A stretch of 64,000 nt of DNA, from NCBI GenBank assembly GCA_964415355.1, contig CAYPYS010000003.1, forward strand, positions 4,156-68,155, read 5' to 3'. The position numbers and the translations under genes were made by a program. The notes beneath the pieces were generated by a model. The model saw nothing but the letters and a program-made list of their open reading frames with translations, was not told the DNA's origin and ran no database searches. Positions 1,263-35,016 of this stretch are shown piece by piece (the stretch's first letter is position 1; the number at the start of each line of letters is the position of its first letter). The DNA is from an uncultured Planctomycetia bacterium. GTDB lineage: Bacteria; Omnitrophota; Gorgyraeia; Gorgyraeales; Gorgyraeaceae.

Positions 1263-1273
1263 CTCTATCCCTT

Positions 1274-1308
1274 AACTTTATATTTCAACAACGTTAAAGT
1301 GTAAACTT
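1274..1308. repeat. 35-bp imperfect palindromic intergenic repeat, copy 1 (form A, 2 substitutions)
   Basis: aactttatatttcaacaacgttaaagtgtaaactt sits between the dnaX start and tRNA-Ser. Confidence 0.9.
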
Positions 1309-1310
1309 AC

Positions 1311-3722: not shown

Positions 3723-3740
3723 TTGGTCTTTTTAAAGCTT

Positions 3741-3775
3741 AACTTTACATTTCAACAACGTTAAAGTGTAAAGTT
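3741..3775. repeat. 35-bp palindromic intergenic repeat, copy 2 (form A)
   Basis: Exact match to the consensus aactttacatttcaacaacgttaaagtgtaaagtt. Confidence 0.95.
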
Positions 3776-3779
3776 AAGT

Positions 3780-6646: not shown

Positions 6647-7698
6647 CGTAAAGACTCTAAGTATCTTATTATTTCTTCTTCTGTAGGCACGCCGCCGCCT
6701 GTACGACCATAAAAATGAACCGGCTTCTTGCAATCTATAGCTAACCTCACGTCATCTATTAATTGGCCACAGCTCATCTCTGCCACTAAAAATTTATCAA
6801 CGCGTTTTGCCAATTTCTTTAACTCTTTTTCCGGAAACGGCCACAGGCTTATTGGCCTGAAAAGTCCTATCTTTTTACCTTCTGCTCTAAATTTTTCTAC
6901 AATATTTCTGCAGATCCTGCTTGTCGTGCCATAAGCTACCAGCATGGTTTCGCTATCATCTCCGTATAAAACTTCGTAACGCACCTCTTTTTCCTTGATC
7001 TCTTCATATCTTTTTTGAAGCTTTTGGTTTAACCTCTCCAATTCCCCTTCTCCAAGCAGAAGCGACCTGATAATCCTCGGCTTTCTGCCTTTACAACCAT
7101 TGAGTATCCAATTCTTTCCGGATTTCAGTTTTAGGATTTCAGCTTTTGGCTGTAACTCCACCGGCTCCATCATCTGCCCTAAAATTCCATCACCCAGAAT
7201 CATTGCAGGCATCCTGTATTTATCTGCCAGATCAAAAGACAGCGCGGTCAAATCCACTATTTCCTGCAGTGACGCCGGCGCCAGGACTATTTGGCGATAA
7301 TCGCCGTGACCGCCGCCTCTTGTAGCTTGAAAATAATCGCTCTGACTCGGAGCTATATTTCCAAGCCCGGGCCCGCCCCTCATTATATTCACTATTACAG
7401 CGGGAAGTTCGCAACCAGCCAGATACGATATTCCTTCCTGCTTGAGACTTACACCTGGACTCGAAGAAGAAGTCATAGCCCTGATACCTGTCAAAGAGGC
7501 ACCAAAAACCATATTTATAGCAGAAATTTCGCTTTCCGCCTGGATAAAAACTCCGCCTACCTCTGGCATACGGCGCGACATATAGGCTGGGATTTCGTTC
7601 TGCGGAGTAATAGGATACCCGGCGTAAAATCTGCAGCCTGCCATTATCGCAGCTTCTGCTAAAACCTCATTACCTGACATAAGGACTTTTTTCGCCAT
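6643..7698 (-). CDS. korA: 2-oxoacid:ferredoxin oxidoreductase, alpha subunit
   Basis: MAKKVLMSGNEVLAEAAIMAGCRFYAGYPITP is typical of the alpha-subunit N-terminus. Confidence 0.85.
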   Translation of the reverse strand: MAKKVLMSGNEVLAEAAIMAGCRFYAGYPITPQNEIPAYMSRRMPEVGGVFIQAESEISAINMVFGASLTGIRAMTSSSSPGVSLKQEGISYLAGCELPAVIVNIMRGGPGLGNIAPSQSDYFQATRGGGHGDYRQIVLAPASLQEIVDLTALSFDLADKYRMPAMILGDGILGQMMEPVELQPKAEILKLKSGKNWILNGCKGRKPRIIRSLLLGEGELERLNQKLQKRYEEIKEKEVRYEVLYGDDSETMLVAYGTTSRICRNIVEKFRAEGKKIGLFRPISLWPFPEKELKKLAKRVDKFLVAEMSCGQLIDDVRLAIDCKKPVHFYGRTGGGVPTEEEIIRYLESLR

Positions 7699-7907: not shown

Positions 7908-7923
7908 TTAAACATATCTCCCT

Positions 7924-7958
7924 AACTTTACACTTTAACGTTGTTGAAATGTAAAGTT
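7924..7958. repeat. 35-bp palindromic intergenic repeat, copy 3 (form B = reverse complement of form A)
   Basis: aactttacactttaacgttgttgaaatgtaaagtt. The dxs stop codon lies inside it. Confidence 0.95.
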
Positions 7959-9847
7959 ACGGTTTGTTTTATCTTCTGAGGAGAAAGGCCGTATCTGTCT
8001 AATAAAATATCCCTGTCACCGTGCTCGATAAACTTATCAGGAAGCCCGAGCATCTTAACTCTGGTTTCCTTAGGGATTTTATCGATTATCTCTTCTAAGA
8101 CGTATGCCCCGAATCCTCCCTTAAGTGCACCCTCTTCTATTGTAATCAATTTTTTAGTCTTTGATACGGATTTTAATATTAAATCCAGATCCAAAGGTTT
8201 AATGAACCTCGCGTTTATGACTTCGCAGTCTATGCCTTCAGTCAAAAGAGACGAGGCTACGTCCATTGAAACATGAGACATATAACCTATGCTTACTATA
8301 GTAACATCTTTGCCCTCTTTTAGCACCTCTGATTTTCCTAAAATAATAGGCGTTTTTGTCACGGCTGAAGGAAAATTATAACTTTTACCTCGAGGATATC
8401 TTATGGCAATAGGGCCTTCATTATAAGAAATTGCGAATCTAAGCATGTCTTTTAATTCTGCTTCATCCTTTGGCGCCAGCACCACTATGCCGGGCAGGCT
8501 TATTAGATATGCGATGTCAAACGCGCCGTGATGAGTAGGCCCGTCTTCACCCACGAGGCCAGCCCTGTCAAGCATGAATACTATATTAAGATCCTGTAAA
8601 CACGCGTCGTGTGCTATCTGGTCATAGGCGCGCTGCAGAAAGGTAGAATAAATCGCCACGACCGGTTTCAGGCCTGCCCTCGCTAGACCTGCCGCAAAGC
8701 CCACTGCGTGCTGCTCTGCCATGCCAACATCAAAGAATCTATCCGGAAAGATCTTCGCAAATCTATCGAGGCCCGTGCCTTCTGGCATTGCAGCTGTTAT
8801 GGCAATGACCCTTTTATCTGTCTTTGCGATTTCGATAATCTCTTCGCCGAATACGCTTGTGAAACTAATTTCTGGAGACACAGTCGATGTAACCTGTCCT
8901 TTTTCTTTTTTGGCACATACCTTTTCTCCGGTCGACACGTCAAATGAACTCACGCCGTGGAATTTTTCAGGTATCTTTTCGGCATACTCATAGCCTTTGC
9001 CTTTCTTGGTAACTACATGCAAAAGTACAGGCGCATCCATGTCTACGATGTTTTTCAAAGTGCCGACCAGGGTCTTTATATCATGACCGTCGACAGGCCC
9101 GAAATACCTGAATCCCATTTCCTCAAAAAGCATGCCCGGCACCAGAAGATTCTTAAGTCCTTCTTCCAGGCGCCTAGCGGATCTTATGACCCTGAACCCA
9201 AAACGCGGGACTCGTTTCAGAAGGCCCTCTATGTCGCTTCTTATTTTATTGTAAACCGGCGCGGTCATGATGCTGTTTAGATATCTACTCAGCGCGCCAA
9301 CGCTTTTTGAGATGCTCATCTCGTTGTCGTTGAGAATAACCAATATCTTTTTTCGCAAGTGGCCTCCGTGATTGAGCGCCTCGAAAGCCATGCCCCCTCC
9401 CAATGAAGCATCCCCTATAACCGCGACCACCTTATATGCCTTTTCTTCTAAATCGCGCGCCGCTACCATGCCCAGCGCAGTAGAAATAGAGGTCGAACCA
9501 TGCCCTGTCGTAAAAACATCATATTCGCTTTCATTTTTATTCGGAAAACCACTTATGCCGTCGAGTTTACGCAAGGTATTGAATCTATCTTTCCTGCCGG
9601 TTAACAGTTTATGCGCATATGCCTGGTGGCCGACGTCCCAGATAATCTTATCCTCGGGCGCGTTCAAGCAATAGTGAATCGCTACTATCAGCTCAACCGC
9701 TCCCAGGCTGGACGCCAGATGCCCGCCGGAACAAGACACTGTATCAATGATAGCGCATCTTATTTCATGCGCCAAAAGCGTAAGCTCATCAATGCTGAAT
9801 TTTTTTAAATCCGACAGCCTGGTTATCCTATCTAATAATATACCCAT
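7928..9847 (-). CDS. dxs: 1-deoxy-D-xylulose-5-phosphate synthase
   Basis: TPP-enzyme motifs (GHLASSLGAVEL, GDGxxxxG...N) and a transketolase-like C-terminal domain are present. The last residues (...LHFNNVKV) are translated from the repeat. Confidence 0.9.
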   Translation of the reverse strand: MGILLDRITRLSDLKKFSIDELTLLAHEIRCAIIDTVSCSGGHLASSLGAVELIVAIHYCLNAPEDKIIWDVGHQAYAHKLLTGRKDRFNTLRKLDGISGFPNKNESEYDVFTTGHGSTSISTALGMVAARDLEEKAYKVVAVIGDASLGGGMAFEALNHGGHLRKKILVILNDNEMSISKSVGALSRYLNSIMTAPVYNKIRSDIEGLLKRVPRFGFRVIRSARRLEEGLKNLLVPGMLFEEMGFRYFGPVDGHDIKTLVGTLKNIVDMDAPVLLHVVTKKGKGYEYAEKIPEKFHGVSSFDVSTGEKVCAKKEKGQVTSTVSPEISFTSVFGEEIIEIAKTDKRVIAITAAMPEGTGLDRFAKIFPDRFFDVGMAEQHAVGFAAGLARAGLKPVVAIYSTFLQRAYDQIAHDACLQDLNIVFMLDRAGLVGEDGPTHHGAFDIAYLISLPGIVVLAPKDEAELKDMLRFAISYNEGPIAIRYPRGKSYNFPSAVTKTPIILGKSEVLKEGKDVTIVSIGYMSHVSMDVASSLLTEGIDCEVINARFIKPLDLDLILKSVSKTKKLITIEEGALKGGFGAYVLEEIIDKIPKETRVKMLGLPDKFIEHGDRDILLDRYGLSPQKIKQTVTLHFNNVKV

Positions 9848-10670: not shown

Positions 10671-10681
10671 CTCTCTCCCCT

Positions 10682-10716
10682 AACTTTACATTTCAACAAC
10701 GTTAAAGTGTAAAGTT
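10682..10716. repeat. 35-bp palindromic intergenic repeat, copy 4 (form A)
   Basis: Exact consensus; the xseB stop codon is inside the repeat. Confidence 0.95.
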
Positions 10717-10936
10717 ATTCCTCGAAAGTCTCGGTATTAAGCTTGCCGCCTTTTTTGACAAGGATCTCGACCTTACGCTTTGTCTCGTCCAGACGCTTCC
10801 TGCAAAGACGCAAAAGCTTCACACCTTCTTCGTATTTTTTCAATGACTCGCCCAGCGGCATGTCTCCGCTCTCCAAGCTGTCGACAATCTCCTCTAATTT
10901 ACCCATCATCTCTTCGAATTTCAATTCTTTTGACAT
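10715..10936 (-). CDS. xseB: Exodeoxyribonuclease VII small subunit
   Basis: 73-aa coiled-coil protein beginning FEEMMGKLEEIV. Confidence 0.8.
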   Translation of the reverse strand: MSKELKFEEMMGKLEEIVDSLESGDMPLGESLKKYEEGVKLLRLCRKRLDETKRKVEILVKKGGKLNTETFEE

Positions 10937-12086: not shown

Positions 12087-12107
12087 ATCTATCCCAGAGA
12101 CCTGAAT

Positions 12108-12142
12108 AACTTTACATTTCAACAACGTTAAAGTGTAAAGTT
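12108..12142. repeat. 35-bp palindromic intergenic repeat, copy 5 (form A)
   Basis: Exact consensus. Confidence 0.95.
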
Positions 12143-12932
12143 AGAGATAATTCAGGATCTTCTCTCTCACTCTTTCTATGGATGATGCCTTGCCAGTCTC
12201 TTCGTCTATGTCGACCAGCGCCCCCTGCAGTTCAACATCATCCTCTGCCATCTCAAATTTTGCAGGCATACATTTCAAAAAATGCTCTATGATAATATCG
12301 GCCTTGCGGCCTATGACTGAATCCTGCGGGCCTGTCATGCCCAGGTCTGTTATGTACGCGCTCCCAAGAGGCAATATCTTCTCATCAGCTGTCTGCACAT
12401 GCGTATGCGTCCCGAATACTACGCTGACTTTACCGTCGAGAAATCTCCCGATCGCGATCTTCTCGCTCGTTGCTTCCGCATGCATATCCACCAGGATTAT
12501 CCCGGTGTCTTTTGATATCCTATTCACCTCTTCTTCCGCCCTCCTGAAAGGACAGTCGATGCCTTTCATAAAAATTCTCCCAGCGACATTTATAATACCT
12601 ATTTTTTTACCCTTATTCGATTTAAGGACAGTCGAGCCTTTGCCGGGACAACCATTTGGATAATTTGCCGGCCTTAAGATCCTGGCATCTTCGTCCAGCC
12701 TTTCATATATCTCTTTTTTCTTCCAAATATGGTCACCTGCAGTCAGGGCATCGATGCGGCTGTTAAACAGATCATCTACGGTGGCCAAGGTAAGGCCTGA
12801 ACCTCCGGCAATATTCTCGGCATTGGCAATTACAAAATCTATGTCCCTGTCCTTACGAAATTCGGGGACTATTTTTTTTATCGCCTCTCTGCCGGGTTTA
12901 CCGACTATATCGCCTATTAACAGAATTTTCAA
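12141..12932 (-). CDS. ymdB: YmdB-family metallophosphoesterase (2',3'-cyclic-nucleotide phosphodiesterase-like)
   Basis: MKILLIGDIVGKPGR...DFVIANAENIAGG; it follows rny as in Firmicutes. Confidence 0.8.
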   Translation of the reverse strand: MKILLIGDIVGKPGREAIKKIVPEFRKDRDIDFVIANAENIAGGSGLTLATVDDLFNSRIDALTAGDHIWKKKEIYERLDEDARILRPANYPNGCPGKGSTVLKSNKGKKIGIINVAGRIFMKGIDCPFRRAEEEVNRISKDTGIILVDMHAEATSEKIAIGRFLDGKVSVVFGTHTHVQTADEKILPLGSAYITDLGMTGPQDSVIGRKADIIIEHFLKCMPAKFEMAEDDVELQGALVDIDEETGKASSIERVREKILNYL

Positions 12933-12949
12933 TATATTCTCCTCCGCCT

Positions 12950-12984
12950 AACTTTACACTTTAACGTTGTTGAAATGTAAAGTT
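12950..12984. repeat. 35-bp palindromic intergenic repeat, copy 6 (form B)
   Basis: Exact form B. Confidence 0.95.
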
Positions 12985-14563
12985 ATTTGGCGTATTCTAC
13001 GGCGCGGGTCTCTCTTATGACCGTGACCTTTATCTGGCCTGGATATTCCAGGCCTTCTTCGATCTTTTTTCTTATCTCTCTCGCAAGACCTATTGCCTGC
13101 AGGTCGCTTATTTTCTCTGGCTGCAGGATCACTCTTATCTCTCTCCCTGCTTGTATTGCAAATGCCTTATCGACGCCTTTAAACGAATCAGCTATCGATT
13201 CTAATTTCTCAAGACGTTTTATGTAATTCTCCAGAGACTCTCTTCGAGCCCCGGGTCTTGACGCGCTAACTGCGTCAGCAGCCTGCACAAGCACGCCGTA
13301 TACAGACGTTGACTCCTCTTCTTCGTGATGAGATGCTATGGAATTTACGACTACATACGACTCTCCGTATTTTTTAGCTATATCTGCTCCTATCTTTGCA
13401 TGAGGTCCTTCTACTTCGTGAGTCACTGCCTTGCCTATGTCATGCAAAAGACCGATTCTTTTGGCGAGATTGATGTCCAACCCTAATTCTCCTGCCATCG
13501 CGCCCATGATAAGCGAAACTTCCTTCATGTGCTGCAATGCGTTCTGGCCGTAACTGGTCCTGTATTTCAATCTGCCGATAAGCTTGATGATCTCAGGATG
13601 CACGCGCTGCAAGCCCAATTCAAAAACCGTATGTTCACCCTCTTCTTTCAGGCTGCTATCCATTTCCTGTTTTACTTTACTGACGACTTCTTCTATGCGT
13701 CCAGGATGGATCCTTCCGTCCTGCAAAAGTTTTTCCAGACTGACCCTGGCCACTTCGCGCTTTACTGTATCGAAGCTCGAAAGTATAACAGCCTCCGGGG
13801 TATCGTCGATAATTACATCTACTCCGGTCGCTATCTCGAACGCCCTTATGTTCCTGCCTTCTCTTCCTATGATCCTTCCTTTCATCTCGTCATTGGGAAG
13901 CGCCACTACAGAGACAGTCGTATTCGTCACATGCTCTGCGGCACACCTCTGTATGGCTGTAGTGAGCACCTCTTTCGCCTTTTTGTCGGCGGATTCCTTG
14001 GATCTTTCCAATATCTTATTGAACAAGACCTGGGCCTCGCGCTGCGCGTCTTCTTCTATTCTACGGAGGAATAATTTCTTAGCCTCTTCCACGCTAAGTC
14101 CTGATATCCTTTGGAGTTTCTGCTTCTCTTCGTTAAGCAGCCTGGAGAGTTCGCTCTTGCTCTGCTCTATAGCCTTCTCTTTGCCTACCAAAAGAGATTC
14201 TCTTTTCGAGACATCTTTATCCTTTCTCTCCAATATGTCTACCTTTCGTTCTATGTTCTCCTCTTTCTGACCTAACTTTTTTTCAAGATCCGAAAGTTCT
14301 TGACGTCTATTCTTTGTCTCGCGCTCAAAATCCGAACGCATCTTGAACTTAAGGTCCTTTACCTCGAGTTCGAATTCCTTTTTACGATTATCCAATTCCC
14401 TCTTTGACTCTTCAAGGCCCTTCTTGGCCCTTTCTTCTATCTCCTTCAGGTGCTTCTCGGAAAAAAACTTTCTTATGAAATATCCCGCGAAGAACACCAA
14501 GACAAAAACCAACACCTCTATCAGCGATACTATGGTTTTCAAAGTAAAATCCATCTCCAACAC
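12983..14563 (-). CDS. rny: Ribonuclease Y
   Basis: N-terminal TM helix, long coiled coil, KH domain ([15 protein letters not shown]) and HD domain (HDIGK...H). Confidence 0.9.
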
Positions 14564-17793: not shown

Positions 17794-17795
17794 CT

Positions 17796-17830
17796 AACTT
17801 TACATTTCAACAACGTTAAAGTGTAAAGTT
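17796..17830. repeat. 35-bp palindromic intergenic repeat, copy 7 (form A)
   Basis: Exact consensus. Confidence 0.95.
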
Positions 17831-17837
17831 AGGCGGG

Positions 17838-19538: not shown

Positions 19539-19599
19539 AGTAATATTATTTTAGCATAGATTTTTTGCCGCATAAAGGATATAATACCGGACATAGCCT

Positions 19600-19634
19600 A
19601 ACTTTACATTTTAACATTGTTGAAATGTAAAGTT
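19600..19634. repeat. 35-bp palindromic intergenic repeat, copy 8 (form B variant, 2 substitutions)
   Basis: aactttacattttaacattgttgaaatgtaaagtt lies in the divergent polX/ppiD spacer. Confidence 0.9.
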
Positions 19635-19650
19635 AGAGGGGAGATGAGAT

Positions 19651-21219
19651 ATGCTGCTGAAATTCTTGCGCAAGAAGAAGAACATGAAGAAAATAATCTG
19701 GGGACTCGCCATATTGATCATACCTGCATTTGTAATATGGGGAGCTGGTTCGTCCGGCAGAAAAAAAGGCAAAGGGCCGAATCATGCCGGGAAAATATAC
19801 AATAAAAAAATATCTTTTGACGAATATCTGAATATGTGGCAAGTTACAAGGGACTACGCCACAAGGACGTTCGGCTATAACATCCCGCCCGAATTTATAG
19901 ACCAGATGACATGGAACCGAATAATACTACTGGAAGAGGCAAGAAGGCAAAAGATCCCTGCCAGGGATTCCGAGGTCGTGGATAAGATCGTCTCATTCCC
20001 TATTTTCCAAAGAGATGGGGCCTTTGACAAAAAACTCTATAAATCAATGCTTGGCACTTCCGCAAAAGCATTTGAAGAAAAATTAAGAGACGACATACGT
20101 ATTAGCAAACTAAGGGAAATAATCATCTCGTCTGTCTCTATAAGCGACGAAGAAGTCAGGGAAGAGTACAAAAAGAAGCACGAAAAAATCAAGGCTTCTT
20201 ATGTCGCCGTGCCGTTTTCTGACTTTGAAAAGGACTCACATTTTGAAGAAGGGGACATTGTCAACCACTACGAAGTAAATAAAGAAAAATTCAGGAAGCC
20301 CGAACAAATAAATGTCAGTTACATAGAGATCCTTATCTCAAGCTTTGATGACCAGGTGTACATAGAAAAAGAATCCGTTAAAAGATATTTCGAAGAGCAT
20401 GTTTCCGAATATAAAAAGCCGGATTCCGAGGAAATCCCTGAGCTAAATGAGGAGATAAAAAAAGACATAACCGAGAAGCTCTCCCTGGAAAGGAAAAAAT
20501 CTCTCGCAGAAGAACTTTCTTACAAGGTGCTGGACGCGGCAATAGACAAGAAGGATCTTGAAAACGCCTCGCGGTCATTTGACCTGGACATAAAAGAGAC
20601 TGGATTTTTTAACATGCAGCAAGAGATTCCGGACGTAGGATGGTCTTACGAATTTGCAAAGAAAGGCTTTGAGCTGAGTGAAGGGGAAATCTCAAACATC
20701 CTTATAAAAACAGCTGAGGGATTTTACATCATAAGATTGAAAGAAAAAAAATCCTCCTATATACCTGATTTTGAAGAGACCAGAGAAATCGTGGCCGAGT
20801 CTTTCACAAAAGACCTGTCGATAAAACTCTCCGGGAAAAAGATAAAAAAAATCTACAGGTCCGTTTCTATCGACAACGAAAACAGACTGGAAGCGATCGC
20901 AGGCAAGACCAAAAAAAAGATTAAAACTACGGATGCCATAACGAGAGACAGTTACATACCCACGTTGGGGCCTGCCCGGGAATTTGTCGACAAATGCGCT
21001 TCTCTAAATATCGGGGACATAGCGCCTCCGATAAAAATGCTTGAGGTGTGGACCATTGCCAGGCTCGATGAATATCAAGGCATAGATGAAAGTAAATTTA
21101 TAGAGGAAGAAATAAATTTTAAAGAATCCCTGCTTTCTAAAAAAAGGGAATCTGAATTTAACAAGTGGTTTGAAGGATTAAAAATAAGGGCTGGTTTTGT
21201 AAATTATATCGCGGAGTAA
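19651..21219 (+). CDS. Periplasmic chaperone / peptidyl-prolyl isomerase PpiD-SurA-like
   Basis: N-terminal TM anchor followed by a SurA-N-like domain. The likely start is MKKIIWG at 19684, because the first 11 codons are read from the repeat. Confidence 0.55.
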   Translation: MLLKFLRKKKNMKKIIWGLAILIIPAFVIWGAGSSGRKKGKGPNHAGKIYNKKISFDEYLNMWQVTRDYATRTFGYNIPPEFIDQMTWNRIILLEEARRQKIPARDSEVVDKIVSFPIFQRDGAFDKKLYKSMLGTSAKAFEEKLRDDIRISKLREIIISSVSISDEEVREEYKKKHEKIKASYVAVPFSDFEKDSHFEEGDIVNHYEVNKEKFRKPEQINVSYIEILISSFDDQVYIEKESVKRYFEEHVSEYKKPDSEEIPELNEEIKKDITEKLSLERKKSLAEELSYKVLDAAIDKKDLENASRSFDLDIKETGFFNMQQEIPDVGWSYEFAKKGFELSEGEISNILIKTAEGFYIIRLKEKKSSYIPDFEETREIVAESFTKDLSIKLSGKKIKKIYRSVSIDNENRLEAIAGKTKKKIKTTDAITRDSYIPTLGPAREFVDKCASLNIGDIAPPIKMLEVWTIARLDEYQGIDESKFIEEEINFKESLLSKKRESEFNKWFEGLKIRAGFVNYIAE

Positions 21220-21225
21220 CAATGG

Positions 21226-21270
21226 TAGCTAAGTATACAATTCAACAATGTTAAAATGTATACTTAGCTA
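21226..21270. repeat. Divergent copy (9) of the palindromic repeat with a different but fully complementary 14-bp stem
   Basis: tagctaagtataca-ATTCAACAATGTTAAAA-tgtatacttagcta. The central core matches the consensus, and the stem arms differ from aactttaca/tgtaaagtt but remain perfectly complementary. Confidence 0.8.
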
Positions 21271-21726
21271 CCTGTTCTGGTTCAGAAGAGTCTTTAATTC
21301 TTTCATGAATTGATTTATATCTTTAAACTGCCTGTAAACAGAAGCAAATCTGACATAAGCTACCTCATCCAGATCATACAGAAGCTCCATGATCAATTCA
21401 CCTACCTGGCTCGCGTCTACTTCTTTCTCGAATTTGCTCTGAAGCGTATATTCTATTTTACTCGCAAGCTCTTCAAGCTTTTGCGTACTTATAGGTCTTT
21501 TCTCGCACGCCTTTTTTATTCCGGCCAAGATCTTTTTGCGATCGAATGGTTCCCGCCGGCCATCCTTCTTTATAACCATTAAAGACGCCTCTTCTATATT
21601 TTCATATGTCGTGAAGCGTCTATTGCAATTCAGGCATTCTCTGCGTCTGCGTATCGAGCGACCTTCTTCGGAAGAACGTGAATCGATTACTTTATCTTCG
21701 TCATGACCACAAAATGGACATTTCAT
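21268..21726 (-). CDS. nrdR: Transcriptional repressor NrdR
   Basis: [17 protein letters not shown]...[12 protein letters not shown] zinc ribbon followed by an ATP-cone. Confidence 0.9.
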
Positions 21727-21750: not shown

Positions 21751-21783
21751 ATAACTTACGCGACTGTAAGAAGCGTAAGTTAT
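21751..21783. terminator. 11-bp-stem hairpin between glyA and nrdR
   Basis: ataacttacgc-gactgtaagaa-gcgtaagttat. Function (terminator or operator) is unknown. Confidence 0.3.
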
Positions 21784-23071: not shown

Positions 23072-23089
23072 CTCCCTCTCCTTAACCCT

Positions 23090-23124
23090 AACTTTACATT
23101 TCAACAACGTTAAAATGTAAAGTT
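23090..23124. repeat. 35-bp palindromic intergenic repeat, copy 10 (form A, 1 substitution)
   Basis: ...gttaaaatgtaaagtt. Confidence 0.95.
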
Positions 23125-23566
23125 AGCGCATCTTGTCTATCTTTTTTATCTGACTGACCCTTCTCCCGTGCCTACTGCCTAATGCGCGGGTCGAAAGCCA
23201 GACATCTGTAATCTGTTTTGCCTTGGCGTCTGACACGATTTTTGCCGCTAAAACTAAAATATTGGTATCGTTATGCTGCCTGCTTGAACGTGCTATGTCA
23301 ATTCTATCGCAGAGCGCTGCGCGCACGCCTTTAGCTTTATTTGCGACCACTGACATGCCAACGCCTGTTTTGCATATAAGTATCCCGCGCGCGAATTTCT
23401 TTCTTCCTACGGCCTTGCTGACATTGTAACCAATGACAGGGTAATCGCAGCTCTCTTCGGAAAATGTACCAAAATCCTTAACCCTATGTCCCTTTTTTCT
23501 CAAAAAGTCCGCTAGACGTTCTTTTAGCTTATATCCTCCGTGATCTGCTCCTATCGCAATTCTCAT
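23123..23566 (-). CDS. rpiB: Ribose-5-phosphate isomerase B
   Basis: MRIAIGADHGGYKLKE is the RpiB/LacAB N-terminus. Confidence 0.85.
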   Translation of the reverse strand: MRIAIGADHGGYKLKERLADFLRKKGHRVKDFGTFSEESCDYPVIGYNVSKAVGRKKFARGILICKTGVGMSVVANKAKGVRAALCDRIDIARSSRQHNDTNILVLAAKIVSDAKAKQITDVWLSTRALGSRHGRRVSQIKKIDKMR

Positions 23567-25064: not shown

Positions 25065-25069
25065 TTCCT

Positions 25070-25104
25070 AACTTTACACTTTAACGTTGTTGAAATGTAA
25101 ACTT
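25070..25104. repeat. 35-bp palindromic intergenic repeat, copy 11 (form B, 1 substitution)
   Basis: ...gaaatgtaaactt. Confidence 0.95.
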
Positions 25105-27397
25105 AGTGTCTGTTAATGGCCTTGTCTCCTATGTCGCTCCTGTATTGCATGCCTTCGAAATCGATTTTCTTTACTGCGTTGTATGCATTTTTTTTAGCGG
25201 ATTTGATGTCATCCCCCATGGCCGTCACGCCCAATACCCTACCGCCACTTGTAAATATTTTTCCATCTTCAAGGATGGTGCCTGCATGAAACACCTCGGC
25301 GTCTTTTAATTTCTTAGCTTCTCCCAGTCCTCGTATTTCTTTATGCTTTTCGTAAAAGCCGGGATATCCTTTAGACGCACAGACAATGCACAAACACGGC
25401 CTGTCATCCCATTTAAGATCCGCTTTATCGAGATTACCGTCTATGCACGCTGTTATCGCATCCACCAGGTCTGATTTTAATCTAGGCAAAATAGCCTGGG
25501 TTTCAGGATCTCCGAATCTTACGTTAAACTCTAAGACCATCGGACCCTTTTTAGTGATCATAATGCCGCCGTATAATACGCCTCTATAGAATTTACCTTC
25601 TTTTGAAAATCCGTAAATAATGGGCCTAAAAACCTTCTCGATGATCTCATCGAATATTTTTCCTGACACGACAGGCGCCGGTGAATAAGCACCCATGCCG
25701 CCCGTATTGCCCGAAACCACTACTCTATTATTTCTCCTTATTACTACGAATCCTGTTGATACTGTAACACATCCTATATTCCCTTTGTAATCAACTAATT
25801 CTATATTGTATTTTCTAATAGATGTCTTATTCTTTTTTTTCATCTCTATTGAATAAACAGGCCTTGCTTTATATTTCTTTTTGTTCAAAGGATTAATCAT
25901 TGTTTTTCTTTTATCGACAGTTATTATTCCAGAACAGCCTAGCTTAACTATCATCTCTTGTATATCGTCGATTAACCTTCGAGAACCACTACAGAATCTC
26001 ATCTTACCCCGATGTATATCTCCATCTCCGAAATTAAAAGCTTTGAGAAATTCTAATAATACTTCTTTTCTTGACTGTTTTATATAATTTGGGATGTATT
26101 TTGAATAAGAAATCCCAAATCTTGATAAATATATAGCCAATTGTGTCGAGTTTATTCTAAATTTATGACTCTTCTCTTCATAAATAAATCTAAAAGGGAG
26201 CTTACTAATAATCTTTTTAATATTATTAAAATTTTTTGATTTTCTCATCTGCGAGATATAAACCCTTTTAGAGCCTTCACCTTTTGTAACATAGCCCTCT
26301 GATAAATAAATAGCGAGAAATTTAGCCCAATTGATAAAATTAATTTTTAATTTCTTAAATTTACGATTAAACTTATAATCATATTCTGGCAAAATAAAAT
26401 ATCTAGGATTTCTCCCTGTCCACGAGCCTGACTGATAGATATAATTTTCTCCCTTGTAATCCCTTGCTTCTACTACATACAATCTCTCTTTTCCTCTCCT
26501 TTGCTGAACTAACATTCTATGATTAGGCGTTACAGTTAAATCTATATTTCTATTTCTGAAATTGATCATATTACCTTTATATCTCATCCAATATTTTTTT
26601 AACGGCTTTTCAAAGAAAATTTTTCTAGAATACGGATCGAATACTGCCACTTCAACTTCTCTCTCTAATTTATTAAACCGCTTCCATCCATTATTGGTTA
26701 ATATTTCAGTATCTTCAGAATAACAATTAGGTCCCTTGTCGCCATCAAAAATCCTCTTGTGGTCCTGCGAAGACACAAGAGGCACTATGTTTCTTCCGTC
26801 GCTAAAAACCAATATAGACGCCTCTTCTCCGTCAAGACACTCCTCTATAATAATCCTCTCCCCTGAAGAGCCAAAGATCTTCTTGACCAGCATAGAGTCT
26901 ATTGCCTCTTCTGCCTCTTCAATGGTTTTTGCCACTATAACGCCCTTGCCAGCTGCAAGCCCATCCGCCTTCACGACTACAGGCGCGCATTTTTCTTTTA
27001 AATATTTTTTTGCATCCTTGGCATCGCTGAAGACCCTGAAATCTGCCGTAGGCACGTTAAACCTCTTCATGGTCTCTTTTGCAAAAATCTTACTCCCCTC
27101 AAGCATTGCAAGTTCTTTAGAAGGTCCAAATACCTTCAGGCCTTCTCTTGAAAATATATCTACTACGCCCTTCACCAGCGGCACCTCAGGCCCTACTAAA
27201 GTCAGGTCAACTTTATTCTGTTTTGCAAAATTCAAGAGGCCATCGATATCGTCTGCTTTTATCGGGACTACCTCTGCGATTTGTTTCATGCCGCCATTTC
27301 CAGGCGCGCAGAATATTTTATCGACCTTCCTGCTCTGCGCAATTTTCCAGACCAGGGCATGCTCTCTGCCGCCCGAGCCGATTACTAAAACTTTCAT
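25103..27397 (-). CDS. purD: Phosphoribosylamine--glycine ligase interrupted by an in-frame intein (764 aa precursor; ~424 aa after splicing)
   Basis: The N-extein ends ...KRIFDGDKGPN and the C-extein starts TGGMGAYSPAPVV, which together restore the conserved PurD motif GPNTGGMGAY. The 340 aa in between are intein-like. Confidence 0.85.
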   Translation of the reverse strand: MKVLVIGSGGREHALVWKIAQSRKVDKIFCAPGNGGMKQIAEVVPIKADDIDGLLNFAKQNKVDLTLVGPEVPLVKGVVDIFSREGLKVFGPSKELAMLEGSKIFAKETMKRFNVPTADFRVFSDAKDAKKYLKEKCAPVVVKADGLAAGKGVIVAKTIEEAEEAIDSMLVKKIFGSSGERIIIEECLDGEEASILVFSDGRNIVPLVSSQDHKRIFDGDKGPNCYSEDTEILTNNGWKRFNKLEREVEVAVFDPYSRKIFFEKPLKKYWMRYKGNMINFRNRNIDLTVTPNHRMLVQQRRGKERLYVVEARDYKGENYIYQSGSWTGRNPRYFILPEYDYKFNRKFKKLKINFINWAKFLAIYLSEGYVTKGEGSKRVYISQMRKSKNFNNIKKIISKLPFRFIYEEKSHKFRINSTQLAIYLSRFGISYSKYIPNYIKQSRKEVLLEFLKAFNFGDGDIHRGKMRFCSGSRRLIDDIQEMIVKLGCSGIITVDKRKTMINPLNKKKYKARPVYSIEMKKKNKTSIRKYNIELVDYKGNIGCVTVSTGFVVIRRNNRVVVSGNTGGMGAYSPAPVVSGKIFDEIIEKVFRPIIYGFSKEGKFYRGVLYGGIMITKKGPMVLEFNVRFGDPETQAILPRLKSDLVDAITACIDGNLDKADLKWDDRPCLCIVCASKGYPGFYEKHKEIRGLGEAKKLKDAEVFHAGTILEDGKIFTSGGRVLGVTAMGDDIKSAKKNAYNAVKKIDFEGMQYRSDIGDKAINRH
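25706..26725 (-). mobile_element. Intein with LAGLIDADG-type homing endonuclease domain inserted in purD (precursor aa 225–564)
   Basis: N-terminal splicing block CYSEDTEIL (Cys1), block B TPNHRML (TxxH), two LAGLIDADG-like blocks (LAIYLSEGYV, FLKAFNFGDGDI), C-terminal ...VVVSGN followed by Thr+1. The intein DNA is visibly more AT-rich than the flanking purD. Confidence 0.75.
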
Positions 27398-29156: not shown

Positions 29157-29165
29157 ATATCGCCT

Positions 29166-29200
29166 AAGTTTACATTTTAACGTTGTTGAAATGTAAAGTT
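29166..29200. repeat. 35-bp palindromic intergenic repeat, copy 12 (form B variant)
   Basis: aagtttacattttaacgttgttgaaatgtaaagtt. Confidence 0.9.
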
Positions 29201-32105
29201 ACCAGCGTAACGGTTTCTGCCACGCTTCTTTTAATCTGTCCACATTCGCGTCTACGACCTTTTTGCCGTCTATACCATAGACCTTAAGATCCTTTTTATC
29301 TGAAACGCAACCCACGAGGCCCATAGGCACACCTTTCATGATAGATTCAAACTTCTTTTTGTCCTTCTTTTTTACTTCAACGATGAATCTTGTATTTGAT
29401 TCCGAGAATAAAATAACATCGCTCGGGCCTTTAGTCTGAATTGGCACTTCTCCTAAAAACACTTCTGCTCCAAGCCCGCCTGCAAATGCCATCTCAGCCA
29501 GGCTCACCCCAATACCGCCCTCAGAACAGTCGTGGCATGCCCTCGCTATACCGGCGCCTGTTGCTCTGCTGAGCGAATTAAATACCTTTAGGCCATATTT
29601 TGTATCGACCTTTGGGACGCTGTTTCCTATAACTCCCTTTATCATATTGTAATGTGAACCGCCTAATTCATCCCATGTCATGCCGACCACATATATTAAA
29701 TTCCCGCTCTCCTTAAAATCCATTGAAACCGCTTTTGTCACATCGTCCATAACGCACATCGCTGAAATCAGAAGCGTGGGAGGGATGGAAATGGATTTTC
29801 CGTGCACTGAATATTCATTGTTAAGACTGTCCTTTCCCGAAATAAAAGGCGTGCCATAACCCCTGGCAATATCAAGGCACCCGAAACTCGCCCTTACCAG
29901 ATCTCCGAGCCTGTCAGGCTTATCAGTATTGCCCCAGCAAAAGTTGTCTAGAAGCGCTGTTCTCTTCAAGTTCCCGCCCACTGATATGACCTGGCGTAAC
30001 GCTTCATCAATGCAGGAAGCAGCCATCCAATACGGGTCAATAAGACCGTAGCGCGGATTTATTCCATTTGAGACAATAATGCCTTTTTTAGAATTAAACT
30101 TTGGACGTATTATTGCAGCGTCGCCCGGACCATCATTCTTTATCCCGACAAGCGGTTTTAAAACACTCTGACCCTGCACCTCGTGGTCGTATTGCCTTAT
30201 AACCCATTCCTTACTTGAGACATTCCAGGAAGATAGGATCTTCAATAAATCTCCCGTAAGATTTTTGGGGGGGATTTTTTTTGATTCTCTGTGCTTCGGC
30301 ATTTTCCATACGGCCTTGCGCTCAAACCTGGGTATACCACCGTGCAGAAATCTCATATCCAGGTCACACACAAGGTTCCCTTTATACCTCAATCGCAATC
30401 TTTTGTCTTTAGTAAAACGACCTATTGCAACCGCCTCGACATCTTCTTTTCTGAAAACCTCTAATAACTCATCCAGATGTTTCCCGGGAACAGATAATAC
30501 CATTCTCTCCTGCGCCTCGGATATCCATATCTCTGTATAACTTAATCCATGATATTTTAAAGGTGCCTTTTCTAAATCGACTTCTGCTCCCAGGTCTTCT
30601 CCCATCTCGCCCACAGCGCTCGAAAATCCTCCTGCCCCGCAATCAGTAATAGCATTGTATAAATCTCTATCGCGCGCCTTTAAAAGCGTGTCGGTAACCT
30701 TTTTCTCTGTGATGGGATTCCCTATCTGCACTGCGCCGCCCGAAAGGTCCTCGGATTCATGCGTAAGTTCGCCGGAGGAAAAAGTAGCGCCGTGGATGCC
30801 GTCTCTCCCGGTGCGGCCCCCGACAGCTACTATAAAATCTCCTGTCTTTGCGGACTTGAACGATTTATCTTTAGGCATAATACCTACGGTGCCGCAATAC
30901 ACCAAAGGATTCCCTGTGTAGCGCTCGTCGAAAAGCACTGCGCCGTTGGCGGTCGGGATACCCATGCGATTACCATAATCCCTAACGCCGCTGACAACGC
31001 CTTTCATGATCCTTTTTGGATGCAACATGCCTTTTGGGACACGATTTTGAGGCGTGTCAGGAAGCCCAAAACAAAAAATATCAGTATTTATTATCGGTTT
31101 CGCAGCCATGCCCACGCCCAATATGTCGCGTATCACGCCTCCTATACCGGTGCCCGCTCCTCCATAAGGCTCAAGGGCAGAAGGATGATTATGAGTTTCC
31201 ACCTTGAAACATATATTGTCATCGTCGTCAAATCTGATAATCCCGGCATTGTCTTTAAAAACCGAAACGCACCATGGTTTATCCAGGTCTTTTGTAACCT
31301 TTATCACTGTATTCTTTAATAAATTATTTATCTTTCTGTTCCCCAATGCCCTGACGCCTGAGGCACGGCTCTCGAGGTTTTCTTTGTAATCTATAACGCC
31401 TTTGAACGTTTTATGCGCGCAATGCTCTGACCACGTCTGCGCAATAGTCTCTAATTCGCAATCAGTCGGGTTCCTCTTTATCCTTCTGAAATATTTCCTT
31501 ATCTCCTTCATCTCTTTAAGATTTAAAAAGAGCTGTCCGTCTTTACTGATCTTCATGAGCTTCTTATCGCTCGCTCCTAAGATATCAACTATTATTAATT
31601 TGAATTTATAATCTGCCACGTGCCCAGCACCCTGCGTACTGTGTCCCGTGACAACATGCTGTATTACTTTATTATAGAGAAGCTTTTCGCATATAGCATT
31701 AAACTGGGATTCTGAAATCCTGCCCTGCAGAAAATATTTTCTTTCGGTCTTTACGGAATCTACTCCGCTGACACCCAGATCCCTTATCGCCTTTTTTGTG
31801 CTCTCCTCGACAGGGTCCATCACGCCAGGATTATAGGCTATCTCCACTACGCGTGTCCGTGAATCGCGAGTCGTGAGTCGCGAATCGTTATAGATTTCAT
31901 ATTGCTGAGTTATAGGGTCTACCAACAATTCCTCGGCGATCTTCAATATATTATTTCTCGATACACTCCCGGAAATAATAAAGACCTGGGCAGTTGCAAC
32001 TTTCTTGATTGCAACTATACCCAGGTCTTTTATATCTTTTTTGATCCCGCTTCCCAGAGGATCAAAAATACCTTTTTTGTTCCTTATCTCAACCTTCCAC
32101 TCCAC
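29199..32105 (-). CDS. purL: Phosphoribosylformylglycinamidine synthase, PurS-PurL fusion
   Basis: ~80-aa PurS-like N-terminus (MEWKVEIRNKKGIFDPLG...) followed by PurL AIRS-like repeats. Confidence 0.85.
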   Translation of the reverse strand: MEWKVEIRNKKGIFDPLGSGIKKDIKDLGIVAIKKVATAQVFIISGSVSRNNILKIAEELLVDPITQQYEIYNDSRLTTRDSRTRVVEIAYNPGVMDPVEESTKKAIRDLGVSGVDSVKTERKYFLQGRISESQFNAICEKLLYNKVIQHVVTGHSTQGAGHVADYKFKLIIVDILGASDKKLMKISKDGQLFLNLKEMKEIRKYFRRIKRNPTDCELETIAQTWSEHCAHKTFKGVIDYKENLESRASGVRALGNRKINNLLKNTVIKVTKDLDKPWCVSVFKDNAGIIRFDDDDNICFKVETHNHPSALEPYGGAGTGIGGVIRDILGVGMAAKPIINTDIFCFGLPDTPQNRVPKGMLHPKRIMKGVVSGVRDYGNRMGIPTANGAVLFDERYTGNPLVYCGTVGIMPKDKSFKSAKTGDFIVAVGGRTGRDGIHGATFSSGELTHESEDLSGGAVQIGNPITEKKVTDTLLKARDRDLYNAITDCGAGGFSSAVGEMGEDLGAEVDLEKAPLKYHGLSYTEIWISEAQERMVLSVPGKHLDELLEVFRKEDVEAVAIGRFTKDKRLRLRYKGNLVCDLDMRFLHGGIPRFERKAVWKMPKHRESKKIPPKNLTGDLLKILSSWNVSSKEWVIRQYDHEVQGQSVLKPLVGIKNDGPGDAAIIRPKFNSKKGIIVSNGINPRYGLIDPYWMAASCIDEALRQVISVGGNLKRTALLDNFCWGNTDKPDRLGDLVRASFGCLDIARGYGTPFISGKDSLNNEYSVHGKSISIPPTLLISAMCVMDDVTKAVSMDFKESGNLIYVVGMTWDELGGSHYNMIKGVIGNSVPKVDTKYGLKVFNSLSRATGAGIARACHDCSEGGIGVSLAEMAFAGGLGAEVFLGEVPIQTKGPSDVILFSESNTRFIVEVKKKDKKKFESIMKGVPMGLVGCVSDKKDLKVYGIDGKKVVDANVDRLKEAWQKPLRW

Positions 32106-32827: not shown

Positions 32828-32839
32828 TCTTCTCCTTCT

Positions 32840-32874
32840 AACTTTACATTTCAACAACGTTAAAATGTAAAGTT
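32840..32874. repeat. 35-bp palindromic intergenic repeat, copy 13 (form A, 1 substitution)
   Basis: ...gttaaaatgtaaagtt. Confidence 0.95.
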
Positions 32875-32879
32875 ACTTT

Positions 32880-34241: not shown

Positions 34242-34305
34242 GTCATTCCCGCGCAAGCGGGAATCTAAGAGAACATTACGTCATTCCCGTGAAAGCGGGA
34301 ATGAC
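34242..34305. repeat. Two GC-rich hairpins with GNRA tetraloops (attcccgc-GCAA-gcgggaat and gtcattcccgt-GAAA-gcgggaatgac)
   Basis: Read directly; both are the same family (gtcattcccg..cgggaatgac). Confidence 0.7.
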
Positions 34306-34380
34306 ACCATTTAAATAATCTCATAATACAAATCCCTCCAATCACTGTTAACTTTCTCTATAAATTCTATCTTCCATTGT

Positions 34381-34560
34381 CTATTTCATTTCTTTATACG
34401 TTTCTCTATATACAAGCTTATGGACATTGTATTTTTGAGCAAACCCTTTGATAATATTATTCTTGTGCTCGTATATCCTTTTTACTAGATCGCTTGTTAT
34501 GCCTATATACAATACACCATTCCTTTTGCTAGCTAATATGTAAACATAATAACGTTTCAT
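34381..34560 (-). CDS. 59-aa GIY-YIG nuclease-domain protein (UPF0213/YhbQ-like), below the ORF-track size cutoff
   Basis: Reverse-complement translation gives MKRYYVYILASKRNGVLYIGITSDLVKRIYEHKNNIIKGFAQKYNVHKLVYRETYKEMK*. YVYIL...GxLYIG(I/V)T...R..EH is the GIY-YIG catalytic core. Confidence 0.6.
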   Translation of the reverse strand: MKRYYVYILASKRNGVLYIGITSDLVKRIYEHKNNIIKGFAQKYNVHKLVYRETYKEMK

Positions 34561-34572
34561 GATAATTCATGG

Positions 34573-34633
34573 ATTCCCGCTTTCGCGGGAATGACATGTC
34601 AGAATTTGTTATTCCCGCGCAAATTAGGAATCC
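34573..34633. repeat. Third hairpin of the same family in inverted orientation (attcccgc-TTTC-gcgggaat) plus a decayed fourth copy
   Basis: Together with 34242–34305 these bracket the GIY-YIG ORF. Confidence 0.6.

Positions 34634-34734: not shown

Positions 34735-35016
<282 letters not shown>

Follow-up and report, generated by a model that had tools for sequence, protein, structure and literature searches.

An AT-rich hairpin repeat family of Candidatus Omnitrophota, with a copy at a ppiD/nrdR junction, and its probable link to a RAYT-like HUH-Y1 enzyme

INTRODUCTION

Repetitive extragenic palindromes (REPs) and their REP-associated tyrosine transposases (RAYTs) have been characterised almost entirely in Proteobacteria, in a GC-rich, GTAG-tagged form. 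Their mark is a conserved 5′ GT[AG]G tetranucleotide located 0-2 nt from the foot of the hairpin (PMC6006769, PMC3733652). In Pseudomonas, the REPINs (PMC3116915) go with single-copy, vertically inherited RAYTs (groups 2 and 3, PMC5581495), and the 16-mers flanking the RAYT gene are the most abundant of the genome. Here we analyse a hairpin located between ppiD and nrdR in a 64,000-nucleotide stretch of contig CAYPYS010000003.1; the whole stretch is called the window below. We consider it likely that this junction hairpin is one copy of a REP-type family of Candidatus Omnitrophota, spread and maintained by a RAYT-like enzyme of the HUH-Y1 type. The system is atypical for REP/RAYT, being AT-rich, very dense, devoid of the GT[AG]G foot, composed of singlets and served by a RAYT with a helix-turn-helix (HTH) tail: a known kind of system in a new phylum.

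Like the E. coli REP/BIME sequences (BIME, bacterial interspersed mosaic element) and their RAYT TnpA-REP (structure 4ER8), together known as a REPtron, the Omnitrophota hairpins are short, high-copy palindromes found nearly always between genes. A Y1 HUH gene, usually found in conserved synteny, has copies on both sides, the hairpin version is specific to each genome, and the protein encoded by the gene combines a best fold match to 4ER8 with an HUH motif and an asparagine four residues after the tyrosine (Y+4 = N). Unlike in E. coli, there is no 5′ guide tetranucleotide, the stem has 27% G+C, the density is far higher, the longest conserved block is found at the tip of the hairpin and not at its foot, and the enzyme is ~100-130 amino acids longer, with its HTH at the C-terminus. 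Within-genome subtypes, compensated stem changes and abundant RAYT-flank 16-mers are shared with the Pseudomonas REPINs, whereas the hairpins themselves are isolated single units (at least 842 nt apart in the window) instead of inverted doublets with a short spacer.

Two other classes of Y1 elements are close. In the TnpAY1 classification (PMC6006769), a Y1 core followed by a C-terminal HTH tail gives a likeness to subclass 2.1.2 (within subclass 2.1, ‘TIRYT’), and high-copy hairpins without GT[AG]G recall the atypical REPs of subclass 2.6 and class 3. Subclass 2.1 genes, however, are reported to have no adjacent REP-like hairpins, only terminal inverted repeats GGGG[AT][CG]A[CG] (PMC6006769), whereas the HTH-tailed Omnitrophota gene is bracketed by true hairpins dispersed genome-wide; the likeness is one of architecture. 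The insertion sequences (IS) of the IS200/IS605 group (IS608, ISDra2) share the enzyme fold and the hairpins, often inverted, on both sides of the Y1 gene; they differ in that the Omnitrophota gene appears not to be multi-copy and mostly keeps one syntenic place, that the hairpins are the dispersed unit, and that Y+4 is N, not Q.

RESULTS

The hairpin at the ppiD/nrdR junction

The features of the junction are the following.
19651..21219, + strand: gene for a PpiD/SurA-like peptidyl-prolyl isomerase (SurA_N_2, SurA_N_3, Rotamase_2); the stem begins 4 nt after its TAA stop
21224..21239 and 21257..21272: arms of the hairpin, around a centre at 21240..21256
21268..21726, - strand: nrdR (TIGR00244, 210 bits); the right arm includes its last codon and its TAG stop (21268-21270)

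A first-pass annotation, made from the sequence, had described here two 14-nt arms, tagctaagtataca (21226-21239) and tgtatacttagcta (21257-21270), around the centre ATTCAACAATGTTAAAA, as copy 9 of a repeat at a convergent gene junction. This description is correct in each of its parts. The 14 bp are fully complementary and a flanking gg/cc adds 2 more, giving a perfect 16-bp stem closed by the 17-nt centre; the copy is the ninth by position of the 15 window copies found by profile search with nhmmer (E = 2.4e-10 for this copy); and ppiD, ending at 21219 on the + strand, converges on nrdR, which lies on the - strand from 21268. The family-defined 39-nt element occupies 21229-21267 and is of the TATACA subtype. 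By an arithmetic estimate, a perfect inverted repeat of 16 bp at fixed spacing is expected ~1e-5 times per 64 kb. As RNA, the hairpin folds with -25.6 kcal/mol on the + strand and -31.1 kcal/mol on the - strand (z = -6.6 and -9.9), and none of 200 shuffles folded as well; DNA folding of the region gave a similar result, and z ranged from -6.6 to -10 across the folds. Two JGI metagenome contigs (3300009375 Ga0118721_1004744 and 3300009106 Ga0117917_1024811) match the window, hairpin included, at 100% identity.

The proposed replacement of the arms has to be reduced. When the 11-nt arms are compared in register with the family consensus, only 2 positions differ (C5->G and T7->A; ctaaCtTtaca -> ctaaGtAtaca), both being matched on the opposite arm, so that compensation stands. 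The remaining 5 bp of the stem come from flanking sequence, the right-hand part being the last codon and TAG stop of nrdR, and this same stop gives the feet, by chance, a GTAG/CTAC on both sides. We set the 5-bp extension aside as a feature of this copy, since extension lengths over 121 copies are distributed nearly as expected by chance, the tail being slightly heavy (at least 5 extra bp in 2 copies). The central core, which had been called retained, is indeed conserved in sequence throughout the family, but it is mostly a paired inner stem (TTCAAC/GTTAAA, topped by a loop of 3 nt and with a single mismatch, C×A here and U·G on the other strand), and at the junction it shows 3 differences from the window consensus TTTCAACAACGTTAAAG and 1 from the copies at 19598 and 63816.

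A terminator had also been expected at this junction. A stable hairpin directly after stop codons, here between convergent genes, does resemble intrinsic terminators; unlike these, the family has an AT-rich stem, lies mostly within co-directional gene strings directly before the next ribosome-binding site, and lacks a T-tract on either strand. At the junction the arms are followed by CTGTTCTGG (+ strand) and ATTGTTACT (- strand), with a T-tract in neither, and no T/U tract follows any copy of the family. The 11 terminator-like sites called between 17 and 26 kb include no family copy, and against Rfam 15 the window had no match that reached the gathering threshold, while 17.7-23.3 kb had none even at E <= 1. 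A terminator role is thus unsupported for the junction hairpin and for the family. A compensated stem is the expected behaviour of REP-type repeats, not evidence of a dedicated ppiD/nrdR terminator.

A dispersed family with covarying outer stems and a fixed tip

The window consensus of the family is cTAACTTTACA-TTTCAACAACGTTAAAG-TGTAAAGTTAg. The unit is a near-perfect palindrome of 39-41 nt, composed of an outer stem of ~11-12 bp, an ACA...TGT junction, an inner stem CTTYAAC/GTTAAAG and a 3-nt loop AAY/RTT. Its inner stem mismatch is C×A on one strand and U·G on the other. Its G+C content is 27-28%, compared with 42% for the window. The centre, with up to 3 mismatches, is found 17 times in the window versus 0.54 expected, and the top 16-mers of the window all derive from the element. 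Fourteen of the 15 copies are located before 35.2 kb and the last one at 63.8 kb, with a smallest spacing of 842 nt. For the family, the density is ~1 per 2.5-3 kb and about a third of the intergenic gaps are occupied.

Further copies were collected by a genome scan with one genome per species, using ACANTTCAACAAYGTTAAARTGT as query and taking loci (L numbers below) around the matches listed. Among these matches, ACANTTCAACAAYGTTAAARTGT was found only in metagenome-assembled genomes (MAGs) labelled Omnitrophota and in one labelled Planctomycetia, CAYULJ01, which is a close relative of the window genome (83-96% amino-acid identity). The loci, 324 kb from Omnitrophota MAGs, added 106 copies, for 121 with the window; because they were picked by element match, densities outside the window are biased upward, and their open reading frame (ORF) calls are mechanical. 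Many copies of the sister genome CAYULJ01 have no inner mismatch (CTTTAAC-AAT-GTTAAAG) and form a perfect 19-bp stem. A literature search for palindromic or intergenic repeats of Omnitrophota/Omnitrophica found nothing relevant.

Stem covariation was analysed on the 63 distinct 41-mers. Eight of the 19 stem pairs are changed on both sides, which none of 500 shuffles reached; doubly changed cells number 81 against 33±5 in shuffles, and the covariation score is 0.199 against 0.097. Over these sequences 90.6% of the cells are paired, a fraction that falls to 16-46% when partners are slid by 1-3 columns. Since copies are related by descent, cell counts exceed the number of independent events, which we estimate at ~7-8 compensatory changes. 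The compensated types comprise TTTACA/TGTAAA, TTCACA/TGTGAA, TATACA/TGTATA, TTAACA/TGTTAA, TTGACA/TGTCAA and TTTGCA/TGCAAA, as well as C-G versus G-C at position 5 and TTAAG versus TCAAG/CTTGA. Uncompensated cells are few and mainly singletons. Variation is minimal in the loop and in the pairs of the inner stem, and both are kept in more distant species together with three compensated changes of the outer arms (AACAACTTGACA...TGTCAAGTTGTT; L004, L010, L060). These data point to a hairpin whose stem must pair and whose tip is read by sequence, in line with the selection for a hairpin with a sequence-specific core that the first-pass annotation had put forward; further covarying copies do exist, and the junction hairpin is not an isolated palindrome.

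What did not hold is the idea of a divergent copy compensated in place. The TATACA/TGTATA arms of the junction hairpin define a recurrent minor subtype, present in at least three other assemblies, and the junction copy is one of its members and not a one-off. Arms AAGTATACA...TGTATACTT with a centre of the ...AATGTTAAAA type are found in L007 (JABMSB01) and at three places of CAYULJ01 (L016:3949, L019:1469, L043:2513); the subtype occurs on 8 contigs of metagenome JACKQG01, with other subtypes on the same contigs, and it stands on both sides of the RAYT-like Y1 gene in L052. Chimeric copies also exist, e.g. L042:4101 and L036:7371.

A RAYT-like Y1 gene bracketed by hairpins

A motif screen of the window and the loci yielded one HUH/Y ORF, at L035:1561-2352 in CAYULJ01. 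The encoded 263-aa protein, P0001, matches Pfam Y1_Tnp PF01797 with 35.6 bits (cutoff 23), and its only NCBIfam match is the REP-associated tyrosine transposase NF047646 (64 bits, E = 1.3e-17; cutoff 80). It carries the motifs HIHLL and YIHHN, in which H76, H78, Y135 and N139 are invariant in 28 homologues, and a C-terminal tail resembling HTH_23/HTH_28/HTH_7. In a Foldseek search, the AlphaFold2 model built with these 28 homologues (pLDDT 85.5) had as top match 4ER8_A, the RAYT-REP complex (E = 1.9e-6, TM 0.74, 159/165 columns), ahead of IS200 and IS608 (~1e-4) and of the ISDra2 transposase. The protein is thus predicted to have a RAYT-like fold along with RAYT-like catalytic motifs. Homologues number more than 1,000 (~295 aa), the best matches being almost all from Omnitrophota.

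In L035 the Y1 gene is bracketed by elements at 1499-1539, 21 nt before the ATG, and at 2335-2375, which contains the last five codons and the stop of the gene. The same holds beyond this genome: in seven assemblies (six besides CAYULJ01) the Y1 gene adjoins the genome's own hairpin version, on both sides in six of them and upstream only in L059, where the downstream copy is mismatched. All flanking hairpins follow a common plan (...ACA / inner stem / A-N-T loop / ...TGT...) and their versions recur elsewhere on the same contigs; the loci contain 89 occurrences of a 16-mer taken from the flanks of the CAYULJ01 RAYT. In L053, only two copies are present in 12.9 kb and they are the two Y1 flanks. 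Chance bracketing is estimated arithmetically at ~0.06-0.11 for each of the low-density genomes. The RAYT-like gene is therefore bracketed by co-varying, genome-specific hairpins. It is found in the order hom-thrC-Y1-(HTH_3)-Tricorn_N-giant protein-rluD in 5 of 6 informative contigs, the gene of L058 lying in an ATP synthase cluster, and such a conserved thrC synteny would be expected of a RAYT passed on vertically (PMC5581495).

Ahead of the hairpin that lies 5′ to the Y1 gene, several genomes share a conserved stretch, TTGAAAGAAA...GTGTC... (L050:9900-10000, L053:1895-1935, L035:1440-1498, L052:235-275). It may be the promoter of the Y1 gene, in which case the 5′ hairpin would lie in the leader.

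Gain, loss and flipping of copies between sister genomes

Three loci of CAYULJ01 (L025, L026 and L046) are syntenic with 17.8-36.6 kb of the window and give the following comparison.
ppiD|nrdR junction: junction hairpin in the window; unrelated 54 nt without element in L025
polX|ppiD site (19598 copy): filled in the window; empty in L025, with ‘CTAAG’ left
purD-side site (25068 copy): filled in the window; empty in L025, with ‘CTTAAG’ left
rpiB-side site: empty in the window; filled in L025
glyA|rpiB site (23088 copy): filled in the window; filled by another subtype (TTAAG..CTTAA) in L025
32838-32876 copy: filled in the window; in L046 (6650-6687) arms identical and 17-nt centre exactly reverse-complemented (flipped tip)
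35082 copy: filled in the window; conserved in L046

Copies were thus gained, lost and flipped between the two genomes, and the junction orthologous to ppiD|nrdR is one of those that are empty in the sister. The flip of the tip might have come about by re-insertion or template switching. We looked in three filled/empty pairs for a rule of insertion site or duplication; the footprints are inconsistent (CTAAG, CTTAAG and none) and yield no rule.

Two observations concern the same loci. On the purL side, the left half of the copy at 29164-29202 is replaced in L026 (~2330-2420) by a third palindrome, TTAGCCCATTCCTCTGTAGGGGAGAC-TTAAG-GTCTCCCCTACAGAGGAATGGGCTAA. In the nrdR|glyA spacer of the window, a second hairpin, ATAACTTACGC-N11-GCGTAAGTTAT, is present at 21751-21783; it belongs to ~95 nt absent from L025, and its arms faintly resemble TAACTTTACA of the family.

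A possible mechanism and the points that weigh against it

We propose that a single-copy RAYT-like HUH-Y1 enzyme with a C-terminal HTH, its own gene bracketed by hairpins, would spread and maintain the family. The enzyme would act on the element folded as a single-stranded DNA hairpin, reading the inner stem and loop by sequence, while the outer stem would need only to pair. Variants with both arms changed would then proliferate as subtypes because pairing is needed for the enzyme step, and half-changed variants would stay rare singletons. The TATACA-subtype copy would have arrived at, or have been kept at, the ppiD|nrdR junction in the window lineage only. The link to a Y1 HUH enzyme favours single-stranded DNA over RNA as the form in which the hairpin matters; we infer this form, mobilisation by the Y1 enzyme and any effect on host mRNA.

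Several findings weigh against assigning the family to REP/RAYT. On the side of the hairpins, just 7 of 242 feet have a GT[AG]G at a distance of 12 nt or less, and the flanks carry no more than 0.2 bits at any position; the stem is not G+C-rich; and copies are singlets, not REPIN doublets. On the side of the enzyme, the NCBIfam score of P0001 stays under the RAYT cutoff, PDB sequence searches with the Y1 protein or the 28-sequence profile gave no transposase match, and the HTH tail matches TnpAY1 subclass 2.1, reported without associated REPs (PMC6006769), this assignment being one by architecture. The window's own RAYT gene is not within the 64 kb. About 36% of the co-directional gaps are occupied in the genus and chance bracketing in CAYULJ01 alone is ~0.13, so bracketing there is possibly fortuitous and the argument rests on the lower-density genomes. 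Finally, copies show an orientation bias of 59:26 relative to transcription, which could mean selection at the RNA level.

Genomic context and alternative explanations

The 14 copies of the window other than the junction hairpin are located as follows.
1272..1310, + strand: abuts the 3′ end of tRNA-Ser (1311-1406, - strand)
3739..3777, + strand: between a 113-aa ORF and tRNA-Gln
7922..7960, - strand: dxs TAA stop in the arm
10680..10718, + strand: intercistronic; stop of the upstream gene in the arm, ribosome-binding site of the next gene directly after
12106..12144, + strand: intercistronic
12948..12986, - strand: stop of the RNase Y gene in the arm
17794..17832, + strand: downstream of polX; consensus sequence
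19598..19636, - strand: in the divergent polX|ppiD spacer; the ppiD start region follows after 14 nt
23088..23126, + strand: between rpiB and glyA
25068..25106, - strand: after purD
29164..29202, - strand: after purL
32838..32876, + strand: orthologous copy in L046
35082..35120, - strand: orthologous copy in L046
63816..63854, + strand: TAA stop of the + strand gene 62584-63819 in the arm

All copies of the family lie in intergenic gaps, and their arms often overlap stop or last codons. A gene was called on either side of 108 copies; the two flanking genes are co-directional in 101 cases, convergent in 3 and divergent in 4 (background gaps: 284, 19 and 20). The unit carries TAA in all three frames and in both orientations; 39 of the 101 upstream genes in co-directional gaps end on the TAA at element positions 2-4, and the next start codon typically follows 9-20 nt beyond the element. 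This context would fit a host RNA element, an intercistronic mRNA hairpin maintained through selection on the transcript and acting as 3′-end stabiliser, RNase III-type site or factor-dependent terminator, with a two-way transcription barrier at the ppiD/nrdR junction. The very stable RNA folds (-26 to -32 kcal/mol) would agree with such a role, as would the inner mismatch, which on the sense strand is U·G in 44 copies and C×A in 17 (p = 7e-4). A 60-nt variant moreover adds a CCAC-UUCG-GUGG mini-hairpin, and the UUCG loop is known for RNA stability. However, the outer stem gives no RNA signal, with G·U and A·C at 13:14 on the sense strand; the orientation bias comes without a general RNA signature, both orientations are common, and the bias could equally reflect the direction of replication. 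T/U tracts, terminator calls and Rfam matches are missing as described above, 4 of the 20 divergent spacers hold copies, individual sites can be done without, as the sister genomes show, and the centre flips. We regard this explanation as possible though doubtful: it leaves the bracketing of the Y1 gene unexplained, and an RNA function may be a secondary, co-opted role instead of an alternative to mobilisation by a RAYT.

Other readings fare less well. The centre, TTYAAC-N3-GTTRAA, is a conserved inverted repeat of operator-like size (6-3-6) without strict orientation, found in about a third of the intergenic gaps, and a dimeric host protein (nucleoid protein, regulator or topoisomerase) might bind it as duplex or cruciform; for E. 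coli REP/BIMEs, PMC3479197 mentions binding of gyrase and IHF. Yet a dimeric duplex binder does not account for 11-12 flanking bp that stay complementary while their sequence changes, the neighbouring genes are functionally unrelated and copies come and go between sister genomes, which makes a protein site unlikely. Movement of a miniature inverted-repeat element by a DDE transposase into TTAA/TA, with CTTAAG ends as duplicated palindromic target, would agree with the CAYULJ01 unit CTTAAG-...-CTTAAG, with the two empty sites that keep just CTAAG or CTTAAG, and with ends containing TAA/TTAA that place copies at stop codons. Against it, the main window type ends CTAAC...GTTAG, an inverted and not a direct repeat; one filled/empty pair shows no footprint (46-nt difference, no CTTAAG at the empty site); slippage between self-complementary feet gives the same ‘empty’ pattern; no linked DDE transposase was found, whereas a Y1 gene is linked; and the unit is far shorter than known miniature inverted-repeat transposable elements. 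We hold this origin to be improbable. As to a chance palindrome, or a copy drifted and compensated in place, the window does contain a single TATACA-type copy and its extra 5 bp partly reuse pre-existing flank, but the family E-value, the same arms and ...AATGTTAAAA centre in other genomes, the empty sister site and the chance expectation make this explanation highly implausible.

Two further candidates were discarded. Reading TTTACA...TGTAAA as -35/-10 promoter boxes fails on spacing (12 or 19 nt to TAAAGT-like boxes); the arms, unlike promoter boxes, co-vary as a stem, and no promoter was called at the elements. Integron attC sites are imitated by a few copies, which fit RYYYAAC/GTTRRRY by chance (17794, ACCTAAC...GTTAGGC) with unconserved flanks; the CAYULJ01 type ends CTTAAG and the neighbours are housekeeping genes (dxs, rny, glyA, purD, purL).

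If the family is of REP type, as we think likely, a more specific and tentative suggestion is that the Omnitrophota HTH-tailed Y1 proteins are genuine hairpin-mobilising RAYTs that would read the hairpin tip and the ACA/TGT junction instead of a GT[AG]G foot, and that their cargo may have been co-opted as gene punctuation. The TAA codons in all frames, the upstream stops supplied by the element, the short distance to the next start and the 2:1 excess of the better-pairing strand in mRNA speak for punctuation. The matched enzyme-hairpin pairs across genomes form a natural series for what a RAYT recognises. REP finders built on the GTAG rule miss families of this kind, and the repeat, which accounts for many unusual palindromes between genes and many overlaps with stop codons in these MAGs, is a likely source of assembly breaks.

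Variants, second repeat family and other features of the window

The distribution of copies in the window is very uneven: the 28-kb co-directional gene run at 35200-63800 contains none, against 14 in the first 35 kb. In the 60-nt variant, the left outer arm is separated from the centre by ~20 additional bases (TACCACTTCGTGGCACAGGC), which add the CCAC-TTCG-GTGG mini-hairpin; six copies were seen in CAYULJ01 (L003:2600-2690, L009:115-200, L014:430-520, L021:1960-2050, L038:4780-4870, L045:4395-4480). Half-elements joined to CCACTTCGTGGCACAGGC, which resembled the ends of an IS inserted in the loop, proved to be this variant. Others, joined to AGGTGTCTGTCCCTATTT, belong to a second, unrelated palindromic repeat family of CAYULJ01, AAATAGGGACAGACACCT ... 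AGGTGTCTGTCCCTATTT, which sometimes adjoins a truncated half of the main element (L003:5356-5410, L006:1971-2025 and 6856-6905, L011:332-385, L029:6116-6170, L047:6096-6150).

Elsewhere in the window, a tRNA with anticodon CAU (34736-35016, - strand) has its anticodon loop split by a group I intron at ~34778-34982 (RF00028, 70.7 bits); it was not called by ARAGORN, and its L046 orthologue is intronless. Near it, a 59-aa GIY-YIG ORF (34381-34560, - strand; Pfam 44.8 bits) lies in a block at 34242-34595 flanked by hairpins of the GTCATTCCCGCG...CGCGGGAATGAC type; this block is absent from the syntenic L046 and therefore looks like a small mobile insertion. The product of purD (25103-27397) has 764 aa; its PurD match falls into two parts and an intein N-terminal domain is weakly matched, which points to a putative intein; the insert is also present in L025. 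Finally, two PurS-like domains are found at the N-terminus of the 968-aa PurL (29199-32105), which indicates a fusion of the type PurS-PurS-PurL.

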